Below, piece after piece: positions 60,095-61,548 of a stretch of 64,000 bases of DNA (position 1 is its first letter; each line of letters begins with the position of its first letter). This DNA is from a virus, in IMG/VR virus record IMGVR_UViG_3300013767_000112, positions 439 to 64,438 of that record, one strand, 5' to 3'. Made by a program: the position numbers and the translations under genes. The notes beneath the pieces are model-generated. The model was not told the origin of the DNA. It was given only the letters and a program-made list of their open reading frames with translations, and did not search any database.

Positions 60095-61033
60095 TTACTT
60101 TCTTTCGATCTTCAGTTGCAAATGCGTTACTGCCGCATTCGGATCCTTCGGTTCAATCTTTCGCTTGATAGACACGCCATGATCCCGCAGCGATTGCACA
60201 TAGAGCGTAAGATCAATTGCAAATGCAAAGGCAACGTTCACAGCGAACGGTGTACCTCTAAAGGAAAAACGAAAATCGAAAGGACTTGGCCCTAGCACTG
60301 TCAACACGTCTGTACCAGCCCGATCGTATGGGCTTACCACGATCGTCTCATACAAGATGAAACGACCTACCTTCGGACCGACCTTGACCTCATATCCGAA
60401 TTTTTCCACAAAGGCCCTCAAATACCCGACTGCGTCGACGTGCTCAGAGAAGTCAACATCCGAGTGAAAGCACCTCCACGCCCCATCAATCTTCAATACG
60501 GCATTGTCGCGAAGTGCGATGACGATCAGTGTGTAGGGATCCTGTGCAGCAACGTGCTTCACAAACACCGATGTTCTTTTCGCATCGTCGATCTGCCAAT
60601 CTCCCGATGAGAGATGATCAACAAAGCTAGGCTCTGCGACAGCGGACCGAACTTCGTCCCGAGTAACGCCTAAGGTCTCATTGAGGTCGACGAAATTCTG
60701 CTGGAATACAAGCTGATACTGCGATGGAACAAGGATTCCTTTGTTTCCAAGTCTTCCTCTAACCTTCGGTAATTCCCCGGCTTTCAGTACTGACGCCCGC
60801 ATCTGTTGATTTAGGAGCGCTAGTGCCCTTGTGCGGACGTCCGGATCTTCGAGAGAGCCAACCCGCAGTTCCTTCAGTAGGTCGCGTAGCAAGCCGTCGC
60901 GGGCACCCGAAGGAAGACTCTCGTCGACATAGGCGTCGCCGTCAGGATGTGGAAGCAGTTCGGCCATGAAACTTGCGAGGTACGCATTTCGCGTACCTGG
61001 ATCAAGTTTTCGCAATGAGGAGAGCGTGCTCAT
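60095..61033 (-). CDS. Hypothetical 312-aa cargo protein; central region RelE/BrnT-like by eye
   Basis: AGGAGA RBS, ATGA overlap with the upstream gene, lower GC. Confidence 0.75.
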   Translation of the reverse strand: MSTLSSLRKLDPGTRNAYLASFMAELLPHPDGDAYVDESLPSGARDGLLRDLLKELRVGSLEDPDVRTRALALLNQQMRASVLKAGELPKVRGRLGNKGILVPSQYQLVFQQNFVDLNETLGVTRDEVRSAVAEPSFVDHLSSGDWQIDDAKRTSVFVKHVAAQDPYTLIVIALRDNAVLKIDGAWRCFHSDVDFSEHVDAVGYLRAFVEKFGYEVKVGPKVGRFILYETIVVSPYDRAGTDVLTVLGPSPFDFRFSFRGTPFAVNVAFAFAIDLTLYVQSLRDHGVSIKRKIEPKDPNAAVTHLQLKIERK

Positions 61034-61548
61034 ATCTCAACGATGTCGAACTCGTTTCGAGCCAAATTGGCAATCGTGTACTCGACTCCCGTGGAAGCTC
61101 TTTCGCTCGGTGGAACAAGTTTCAGCCTCGGGGCTACAAGCGCTCTCGGAATCACATAGACCAACGGACGCCACAGGACTTGATCGGACAAGTTCGCCAT
61201 ATAGACGATCTCCTCCTCTTCCTCGCTCGTGATTTCTCCTGCTTGCCTCCACTTCGACGAGAGGCTTACCAGCGAGCTACGTGTGGAAATGATCTTAGCA
61301 CTGTGCTTATCAGCGCGCTTGCAATCTTCCGCCAAGAGGCGATAGATCGCGCACGGATCTGAACTCGGCGCCGTAAGAGAGGCTCCAGAGTAGGCTGGAT
61401 GCTTCGTCGAGTCGAACGTTTCGCTGCACCAGACGAAGTGGATGTCTTTACGAAACCGCTCCTGAATGAGCAGTTTAATGAACGGGTTCGTGGAATATAG
61501 AAGGTGTCCAGGCACGGCGATTCGTACTGCAGAATTGCGGGCGCCCAT
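61030..61548 (-). CDS. Hypothetical cargo protein with ADP-ribosyltransferase-like strand pattern (start 61548 or GTG 61515)
   Basis: LLYSTN / FVWCSE / LVYVIP / GVEYTI order; coupled to the 312-aa gene. Confidence 0.7.
   Translation of the reverse strand: MGARNSAVRIAVPGHLLYSTNPFIKLLIQERFRKDIHFVWCSETFDSTKHPAYSGASLTAPSSDPCAIYRLLAEDCKRADKHSAKIISTRSSLVSLSSKWRQAGEITSEEEEEIVYMANLSDQVLWRPLVYVIPRALVAPRLKLVPPSERASTGVEYTIANLARNEFDIVEI

Follow-up and report, generated by a model that had tools for sequence, protein, structure and literature searches.

Positions 60095 to 61548 of the window analyzed here, a 64,000-nucleotide stretch (positions 439 to 64,438) of the IMG/VR virus record IMGVR_UViG_3300013767_000112 (66.5 kb; estimated completeness, 95%), hold two small genes that together span 1.45 kb, between a putative tyrosine integrase gene and a gene for tRNA-His. 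The upstream gene (gene 1) encodes a protein with the predicted fold of the ADP-ribosyltransferases (ARTs), and the downstream gene (gene 2) encodes a three-domain protein whose central part has a predicted BECR fold, as found in RelE, BrnT, and DUF4258 proteins. The pair is an uncatalogued, widespread two-gene module in which known folds occur in a new combination. An earlier reading of the window, made from its letters alone (the sequence-only reading), had recognized no named system with this pair, and neither protein has a significant match in Pfam, NCBIfam, PADLOC, or PHROGs. The family is therefore invisible to annotation and defense-finder pipelines. Its homologues form 118 clusters for gene 1, nearly all of 160 to 163 aa and every one labelled “hypothetical,” and 467 clusters at 50% identity, in more than 10 phyla, for gene 2.

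Architecture of the operon

The two open reading frames (ORFs) are coupled by an ATGA overlap at 61030-61033 and lie opposite to the integrase ORF, with which they converge. Their guanine-plus-cytosine (GC) content is 0.50 to 0.55 across 60000-61750 versus 0.59 to 0.65 across 56000-59750, where the adjacent phage genes lie; the presumed host flank on the right has a GC content of 0.51 to 0.60 as well. The sequence-only reading had described the coupling, the lower GC content, and the orientation opposite to the integrase correctly (coordinates are given in Table 1). Homologues of gene 1 open with MPGxLLYSTN, and the GTG codon at 61515 is therefore an equally probable start that may be the true one; low confidence in the structural model of gene 1 is confined to its first 11 residues. 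The public database call of gene 2, which has 290 aa and begins at M23, 22 codons downstream of the start of the 312-aa protein, is too short, because homologues share the 312-aa start position and L4, L7, and L19 are conserved. It is this longer form that overlaps gene 1.

The operon ends in an intrinsic terminator whose hairpin (−23.4 kcal/mol; z, −3.6) has a stem that overlaps the gene 2 stop codon. Terminators had been proposed on both sides of the pair: the hairpin at 60065 is indeed that of the operon, but the upstream hairpin at 61607-61629 ends the tRNA-His transcript and not the operon. A promoter search found no sigma-70-like promoter between the tRNA-His terminator and gene 1, and read-through expression from the tRNA promoter is therefore a possibility. 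No RNA data set is listed among the sequencing runs with this DNA; the single run that contains it, from a subsurface metagenome, is the probable source. The tRNA-His gene is the likely target of integration, and the sole Pfam match of the integrase ORF is a weak one to Phage_int_M (E = 1.8e-4). The earlier placement of the pair between the integrase and the attachment (att) site stands insofar as the pair occupies the gap between integrase and tRNA, and a location between integrase and att is plausible, but the 66.5-kb record holds no second copy of the tRNA-His sequence, and no att repeat was found in it.

Table 1. Coordinates of the gene pair, its domains, and the flanking features (window numbering)
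Feature	Residues	Position	Strand	Remarks
Gene 1, predicted ART-fold protein		61030..61548	-	172 aa from ATG 61548 or 161 aa from GTG 61515
Gene 1, six-strand core	16-48 and 126-172			
Gene 1, helical insert	about 49-125	61174-61404		
Gene 2		60095..61033	-	312 aa
Gene 2, N-terminal helical domain	1-104	60722..61033	-	Apparent constant partner of gene 1; predicted binding surface
Gene 2, predicted BECR (DUF4258/BrnT/RelE-like) domain	105-193	60455..60721	-	Central
Gene 2, C-terminal alpha/beta domain	194-312 and stop	60095..60454	-	
Intrinsic terminator of the operon		60055..60096	-	14-bp stem (hairpin 60065-60096), then U-run; UUUUGUUUUC
Terminator-like hairpin and T-run between tRNA-His and gene 1		61597..61629 (hairpin 61607-61629)	-	
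tRNA-His (GTG)		61728..61803	-	Same direction as gene 1, 180-213 nt upstream of gene 1
Putative tyrosine integrase, 365 aa		58957..60054	+	Convergent with the pair; weak Phage_int_M match

Predicted folds of the two proteins

The AlphaFold model of gene 1, built on a 47-sequence alignment (predicted local distance difference test score [pLDDT], 92.6; predicted template modelling score [pTM], 0.83), opens with a strand, a helix, and a second strand, continues with an insert of ∼80 residues (three main helices), and closes with four further strands; the strands cover residues 16-22, 36-42, 128-134, about 143-146, 156-163, and 168-170. The ART fold is a split beta-sheet of six strands (4-5-2 and 1-3-6) with helices on its flanks (PMC7955679), and the modelled gene 1 protein has this six-strand form. 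When the model was aligned with 48,161 Protein Data Bank (PDB) representatives, 30 of the 50 best rows were ART-superfamily proteins, among them KptA (Z, 5.7, the best score of all), pertussis toxin S1 (5.1), the DUF952 protein CC0527 (4.8), and DarT (3.2 to 4.4), with further rows for PltA, LT, TreX, SPN, Arr, Scabin, diphtheria-toxin homologues, Vis, and TccC3. Tpt1/KptA filled all of the first 12 Foldseek rows in the PDB (E = 0.2 to 0.9), and structure matches in AlphaFold DB and the ESM Atlas were to DUF952, Tpt1 (PTS_2-RNA), and DUF4433. No other fold recurs among the matches, and we therefore accept that gene 1, as modelled, is an ART fold, with Tpt1/KptA and DUF952 as the nearest structures.

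The ART triad is drawn from strands 1, 2, and 5 (PMC7955679). Three clades, H-H-h, H-Y-[EDQ], and R-S-E, were used for comparison, their signatures being a His or Arg in strand 1 (R/H-G-T/S), a His, Tyr-x-x, or Ser-x-Ser in strand 2, and a Glu, Asp, or Gln at the front edge of strand 5. In 44 gene 1 homologues from two clades, with partners of any type, S19, H37, W40, C41, P65, P128, Y131, E156, and F167 are invariant, which argues that the pocket is under strong selection. In the model, E156 opens the strand at 156-163 (G-x-E-Y/F-I) and is a candidate counterpart of the Glu in H-Y-E and R-S-E enzymes. Although gene 1 is closest in structure to Tpt1/KptA and DUF952 proteins in each of four libraries, both of their clade-defining His residues are replaced in gene 1 (by the invariant S19 and W40), and gene 1 differs further in its invariant Glu at the putative opening of strand 5 and in its 80-residue helical insert; unlike Tpt1/KptA, it has no N-terminal winged-helix domain. 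The chemistry of the pocket is not readable from known ARTs.

Homologues of gene 2 were retrieved by exhaustive search (467 representatives at E ≤ 1e-3, of which 278 were at E ≤ 1e-10); a word-based search had returned only gene 2 itself. The AlphaFold model (84 sequences; pLDDT, 91.8; pTM, 0.82) falls into three parts: a helical domain (residues 1 to 97), an alpha/beta domain (residues 105 to 191), and another alpha/beta domain (residues 200 to 285). The middle part has a predicted BECR (RelE/ParE) fold, which is defined by a four-stranded antiparallel sheet with two short helices packed on it. Its residues match DUF4258 with a template modelling (TM) score of 0.82 (root mean square deviation [rmsd], 1.5 Å; 78 residues), BrnT at Z 6.7 (rmsd, 2.8 Å; 74 of 77 residues), and a Salmonella toxin at Z 6.9. 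RelE, YoeB, MqsR, ParE, CdiA-CT, or colicin D/E5 accounted for 20 of the 50 best PDB rows for gene 2, and matches to its middle domain in AlphaFold DB were to DUF4258 and PBECR3. Profile comparison with hhalign gave E values of 4.8e-4 (DUF4258, PF14076) and 1e-3 (BrnT, PF04365) over 70 columns, the level at which DUF4258 and BrnT match each other. Both folds, and the late-strand Glu of gene 1 (in VEY), had been called by eye in the sequence-only reading, and the models and the alignment support these calls.

The BECR domain has a conserved set of its own, Y106, H140, S155, K159, R175 (invariant), and R187, and R175 and R187 line up with conserved Arg residues of BrnT. It keeps neither the residues shown to be important in BrnT (D6, E7, K9, R41, and E78; PMC5086665) nor the WDxxK segment, and the H-A-x-x-R-M (His/Arg) helix motif of the DUF4258 alignment built here is not conserved in gene 2. 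The fold makes RNase activity of this domain plausible without implying it. BECR toxins with several domains or in fusions have been described (PMC11980606). The gene 2 domain resembles BrnT (of BrnT/BrnA) and DUF4258 in fold but lacks a Pfam match and lies between a helical adaptor and the C-terminal domain, and the pair includes no ribbon-helix-helix (RHH), helix-turn-helix (HTH), or MqsA-type antitoxin. An ART-BECR pair is absent from a survey of RelE/ParE toxins (PMC11980606) and from the literature searched for DUF4258 or BECR together with ART.

For the C-terminal domain (residues 194 to 290), structure searches, which the other two domains dominated, gave no fold. In AlphaFold DB, the unit of BECR and C-terminal domains occurs as a stand-alone 176-aa protein, in a 483-aa protein, and behind other N termini. 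The last helix of the C-terminal domain together with H285-G286-V (residues 275 to 290, at about 60164-60211) resembles the BrnT N-terminal segment “KA..N.KHGV” (hhalign E = 1.4e-3 over 20 columns); this may be a duplicated or permuted BECR element, or chance. Profiles of both families searched against all PDB chains gave chance matches only (e.g., parkin-Ubl on the gene 2 C-terminal domain; E = 0.13). The ESM Atlas's own models of the two proteins had pLDDT values of 0.31 to 0.39, and their structure rows were therefore not used; look-ups by features in the same resource gave nothing usable for either protein.

Conservation of the pair, partner exchange, and predicted complex

Homologues of gene 2 adjoin homologues of gene 1 in a Caballeronia genome (38% identity; E = 2e-64) and in a metagenome contig (31%; E = 9e-34), and two further contigs have the same arrangement of 161 aa plus about 310 aa. 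A survey of GTDB, with one genome per species, yielded 50 loci with gene 1, scattered patchily among more than 10 phyla. In 30 of these loci gene 1 is followed directly by a full-length gene 2 homologue, and 3 others have divergent partners of ∼300 aa. At three loci the partner keeps only residues 1 to 96 of gene 2 and has another C-terminal part: sigma-70 regions 2 and 4 (L018:8474-9475, plus strand), DUF2382 (L010:8522-9349, plus strand), or an unknown domain (L032). Eight loci combine a divergent gene 1 with a short helical partner of 100 to 210 aa, and these short partners are co-linear with the N-terminal domain of gene 2 (hhalign E = 2e-4 over 111 columns). Five loci are cut off or decayed. 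The co-occurrence that the sequence-only reading had named as a check on its proposal is thus found in at least 33 of the 50 genomic loci and in three of four other viral contigs, as well as in further metagenome contigs. In Paenibacillus urinalis (L052:6897-8441, plus strand), a 515-aa protein joins an N-terminal calcineurin-like metallophosphoesterase (Metallophos; E = 3e-19) to a gene 1 homologue as its C-terminal domain, and a 119-aa helical partner follows. Across the loci compared, only the N-terminal domain of gene 2 appears as the constant partner of gene 1.

The two proteins are predicted to bind each other. With both alignments supplied, complex prediction gave an ipSAE of 0.74 (0.73 to 0.76 in three runs) versus 0.00 for the best of three controls; 58 of 80 solved complexes and 2 of 110 mismatched pairs attained a value of 0.74. 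At least 77% of the contacts were common to the three runs, and partner pLDDT was at least 79. The predicted interface joins residues 82 to 125 of the gene 1 insert, together with residues 27, 31, W40, 145, and E156, to residues 16 to 105 of gene 2, and the BECR and C-terminal domains lie outside it. The surface predicted to bind gene 1 is thus on the N-terminal domain of gene 2, as comparative genomics had predicted.

Most copies of the family are chromosomal and lie outside prophages. Gene 1 occurs on four other IMG/VR contigs; on three of them the full pair lies at the end of the contig, directly beside a tyrosine integrase, and the fourth breaks off within the pair. In one provirus (L110), an AAA_15/21 ATPase gene and a radical-SAM gene adjoin the pair. 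PLSDB plasmids yielded a single distant homologue, which lies on a plasmid of Sinorhizobium and has a short partner. No third gene is conserved among the 120 flanking ORFs of 35 loci; in raw counts, these immediate neighbors include four AAA_21/AriA-like ATPases, two PIN proteins, and one RtcB, and the rest are mostly housekeeping genes.

Possible functions of the pair and other features of the window

Our preferred, still tentative, reading is that the pair is a toxin-antitoxin (TA)-like addiction or abortive-infection module that the prophage carries as cargo at its integrase end and whose toxic enzyme is the ART-fold protein. As in type II TA systems, the genes are adjacent and appear to be co-transcribed (ATGA overlap and shared terminator), and their products are predicted to form a complex. 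Several lines of evidence favor gene 1 as the toxin. First, gene 1 keeps all of its invariant residues in the clade whose partners lack the BECR domain. Second, gene 1 evolves at half the rate of gene 2: over 28 paired loci, mean pairwise identity is 47% for gene 1 (55% for its core) versus 25% for gene 2, whose N-terminal, BECR, and C-terminal domains all fall at 24 to 27%. A slower toxin and a faster antitoxin are the usual rate asymmetry. Third, decay is one-sided: gene 1 is frameshifted, interrupted, or truncated beside an intact gene 2 at four loci (L024, L031, L046, and L053), and the reverse, a broken gene 2 beside an intact gene 1, was found in no canonical locus surveyed. With breaks placed randomly in proportion to gene length, four in gene 1 only would have a probability of about (1/3)^4 = 0.012. 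The TA-like reading also accords with signs of mobility, namely the patchy occurrence among phyla and the place next to the integrase in three other proviruses.

A decayed locus from an Alcaligenaceae genome (L048:7941-8586) is a remnant of another kind, in which gene 1 residues 4 to 58, 70% identical to those of the window, abut fragments of the gene 2 C-terminal domain; an internal deletion has therefore taken most of both genes.

From these data we infer the following mechanism. Gene 1 would be an ART-fold enzyme with a conserved, non-canonical pocket (S19, H37, W40, C41, Y131, and E156), and its toxicity would most likely come from modification of nucleic acid (perhaps RNA phosphate ends, as with Tpt1/KptA) or from consumption of a nucleotide cofactor. 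Neutralization would fall to the N-terminal domain of gene 2, which would clamp the helical insert of gene 1, cover the W40/E156 cleft, and keep the enzyme inactive. The DUF4258/BrnT-type module and C-terminal domain of gene 2 may serve in this clade as a second effector or as the part that senses a trigger. Should phage infection, or disappearance of the element, remove or displace the partner, gene 1 would be set free and growth would stop.

Judged by analogy, the module would work most like DarTG or other ART-toxin modules. As in DarTG, two co-directional genes encode a small ART-fold protein and then a larger multidomain partner of ∼300 aa that is predicted to bind it; the spread is mobile and patchy, and DarT itself is among the fold matches of gene 1. 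Unlike DarTG, the pair shows no sign of DarT (DUF4433), a macrodomain, or NADAR by Pfam or PADLOC, gene 1 has other residues in place of the H-Y-E type, and gene 2 has an RNase-fold domain in place of the ADP-ribose hydrolase of DarG. The missing signatures and the different catalytic motifs place the pair outside the DarTG and ART-toxin families. CmdTAC and other modules in which an ART toxin modifies RNA also have a small ART-fold protein neutralized by a bound partner and are carried on mobile elements (PMC11833690); here gene 2 would be the neutralizing partner, and RNA is likewise a plausible target of gene 1. In contrast to CmdTAC, the pair has no chaperone gene and no detected homology to that system, and the partner itself bears an RNase-like domain.

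Several findings weigh against the TA-like reading. Every single fold score of gene 1 is weak, with Z no higher than 5.7, below the alignment tool's noise guide of Z 8, and Foldseek E values of 0.2 or more. Hhalign comparisons of gene 1 with KptA (PF01885) and DUF952 (PF06108), using profiles of 15 KptA and 28 DUF952 proteins taken from genome matches, were non-significant (E = 0.2 to 0.9), whether for the whole protein, the core without the insert, or each half; the best register placed LLYSTN onto LYHGT and HYVWCS onto HVHLS. In the register given by this non-significant alignment and by the secondary structure of the model, strand 1 (L-L-Y-S-T-N) has no His or Arg in the 44 homologues and carries the invariant S19 instead, and the canonical strand-2 residue is replaced by the invariant W40 in a strand that reads H37-x-V-W40-C41-S42, with H37, three residues before W40, invariant too. 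The Pfam scan of gene 2 shows no HTH or RHH DNA-binding domain, and type II antitoxins usually carry a DNA-binding domain. The real toxin could be the BECR domain, in which H140 and R175 are conserved. Long-read metagenome-assembled genomes, the source of some broken gene 1 copies, tend to contain indel errors, and at one of the 50 GTDB loci (L043) no partner is visible beside gene 1. None of 50,697 GenBank phage genomes contains the family, and the raw counts of the 120 immediate neighbors give no clear defense-island signal. Finally, the sigma-70, DUF2382, and Metallophos fusions fit a regulator with an output at least as well as a plain TA system.

That last point leads to the strongest alternative, which we consider rather unlikely: the pair may be a sensor or regulator with an effector, the BECR RNase of gene 2 being the sole toxin and the ART-fold protein a catalytically dead or ligand-sensing regulator. 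Gene 1 would then hold the N-terminal adaptor, and a signal, for example a phage protein or a molecule derived from NAD or ADP-ribose, would make it release or activate the output. In this pair the output would be an RNase; elsewhere it would be a sigma factor, DUF2382, or Metallophos. Outputs do vary on a constant core of ART and N-terminal domains (L018, L010, and L052), the canonical ART catalytic residues are missing from gene 1, and the BECR domain keeps its own conserved residues, is left uncovered by the predicted interface, and, with the C-terminal domain, occurs alone and behind other N termini. However, eight loci retain all gene 1 invariant residues beside a partner without an output domain, the gene that breaks is gene 1 and not gene 2, and the BECR domain evolves at the same rate as the other parts of gene 2 and lacks both the key residues of BrnT and the His/Arg helix motif of DUF4258.

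The surroundings of the pair bear on a further alternative. Six of 53 related loci (L001, L019, L020, L045, L046, and L047), like the window, have a tRNA gene on the same strand 85 to 215 nt upstream of gene 1, where the density of other tRNAs in those loci predicts about 0.1 case by chance. These tRNAs are of five identities (His, Ser-GGA, Ser-CGA [twice], Phe, Met, and Val), a second tRNA-Ser gene follows gene 2 in L020 and L046, and a transfer-messenger RNA (tmRNA) gene follows gene 2 in L008. At five tRNA-linked loci there is no nearby integrase, and the 1.5-kb pair stands alone among housekeeping genes (e.g., dnaX and T2SSE). The simplest explanation is that such a lone pair is what is left of a decayed tRNA-targeted island from which an addictive module was kept, which fits the TA reading. 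A functional tie of the pair to tRNA is a further possibility.

The pair might also have no role in conflict and might instead process or regulate RNA ends, a KptA-like enzyme with an RNase-like partner acting on tRNA or other RNA, expressed by read-through from tRNA genes and hitch-hiking on mobile elements. We regard this as improbable. The nearest folds of gene 1 (Tpt1/KptA and DUF952) belong to the H-H-h clade, which is linked to RNA repair, small-molecule chemistry, and RNA-end chemistry after cleavage by metal-independent RNases (PMC9503650), and the excess of upstream tRNAs, the missing promoter between the tRNA terminator and gene 1, the Metallophos and sigma-factor fusions, and the mostly housekeeping neighbors all agree with it. 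It accords poorly with the patchy, apparently horizontal spread, the fast evolution of the partner, the pseudogenes, and the position beside an integrase in four proviruses; moreover, both clade-defining His residues of KptA are replaced, and the pair is linked to neither an RNA ligase nor a 2H or macro domain, with a single RtcB among the 120 neighbors.

The RNA-end chemistry of the H-H-h clade, together with the proposal that KptA-like toxins ADP-ribosylate RNA ends (PMC11833690), leads to a further reading, an RNA-damage module with two active partners (“cut and cap”), to which we give little credence. The BECR domain would cleave tRNA or mRNA, and the KptA-like gene 1 protein, acting within the complex, would modify the new phosphate end or nearby RNA and so block RtcB-type repair by host or phage ligases. 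If this were true, the position after tRNA genes would reflect read-through expression or a functional tie to tRNA, and the S-W-E pocket would stand for ART-fold chemistry of a new kind, whose donor or acceptor is not the usual NAD+ and protein. A role in phage counter-defense, in which the pair would repair or pre-empt the damage of host RNA-targeting defenses in the manner of KptA-type repair of cleaved tRNA, is very unlikely: phage homologues of KptA are known as RNA-repair enzymes (PMC9503650) and the pair adjoins the integrase in this prophage and three other proviruses, but the family is found in no phage genome of the GenBank set and on only four further IMG/VR contigs, most copies are chromosomal and outside prophages, and the KptA catalytic residues are absent.

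Should the TA-like reading be correct, the pair would represent a new TA or defense architecture, in which a conserved enzyme is docked by its helical insert onto an adaptor with interchangeable outputs (RNase, sigma factor, DUF2382, or none). If gene 1 is an active enzyme, the ART superfamily gains a branch with a Ser/Trp/Glu pocket. The lone pairs after tRNA genes offer a tractable case of what outlasts the decay of tRNA-targeted islands.

Other features of the window lie apart from the pair. A 3,627-aa ORF at 3216-14099 (minus strand) contains LPD23 (E = 3e-18) and LPD3 (E = 7e-11) domains of phage “large polyvalent proteins,” the remainder being unannotated. Two copies of a 36-nt element with TATAAT, 89% identical, lie 1,270 nt apart at 16013-16048 and 17283-17318 and flank one gene-sized interval. 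At 48548-48681, at least six copies of a 16- to 21-nt unit (GGGTGCATCTGCTGCGGGG-like) are spaced at 16 to 32 nt and could be iterons, operator sites, or a repeat within a coding region. The ORF at 56713-57873 (plus strand) fuses a full-length RdgC (E = 9e-114) to a C-terminal FtsK gamma domain (E = 2e-23), and a YqaJ-like recombinase gene (56057-56689) adjoins this fusion.

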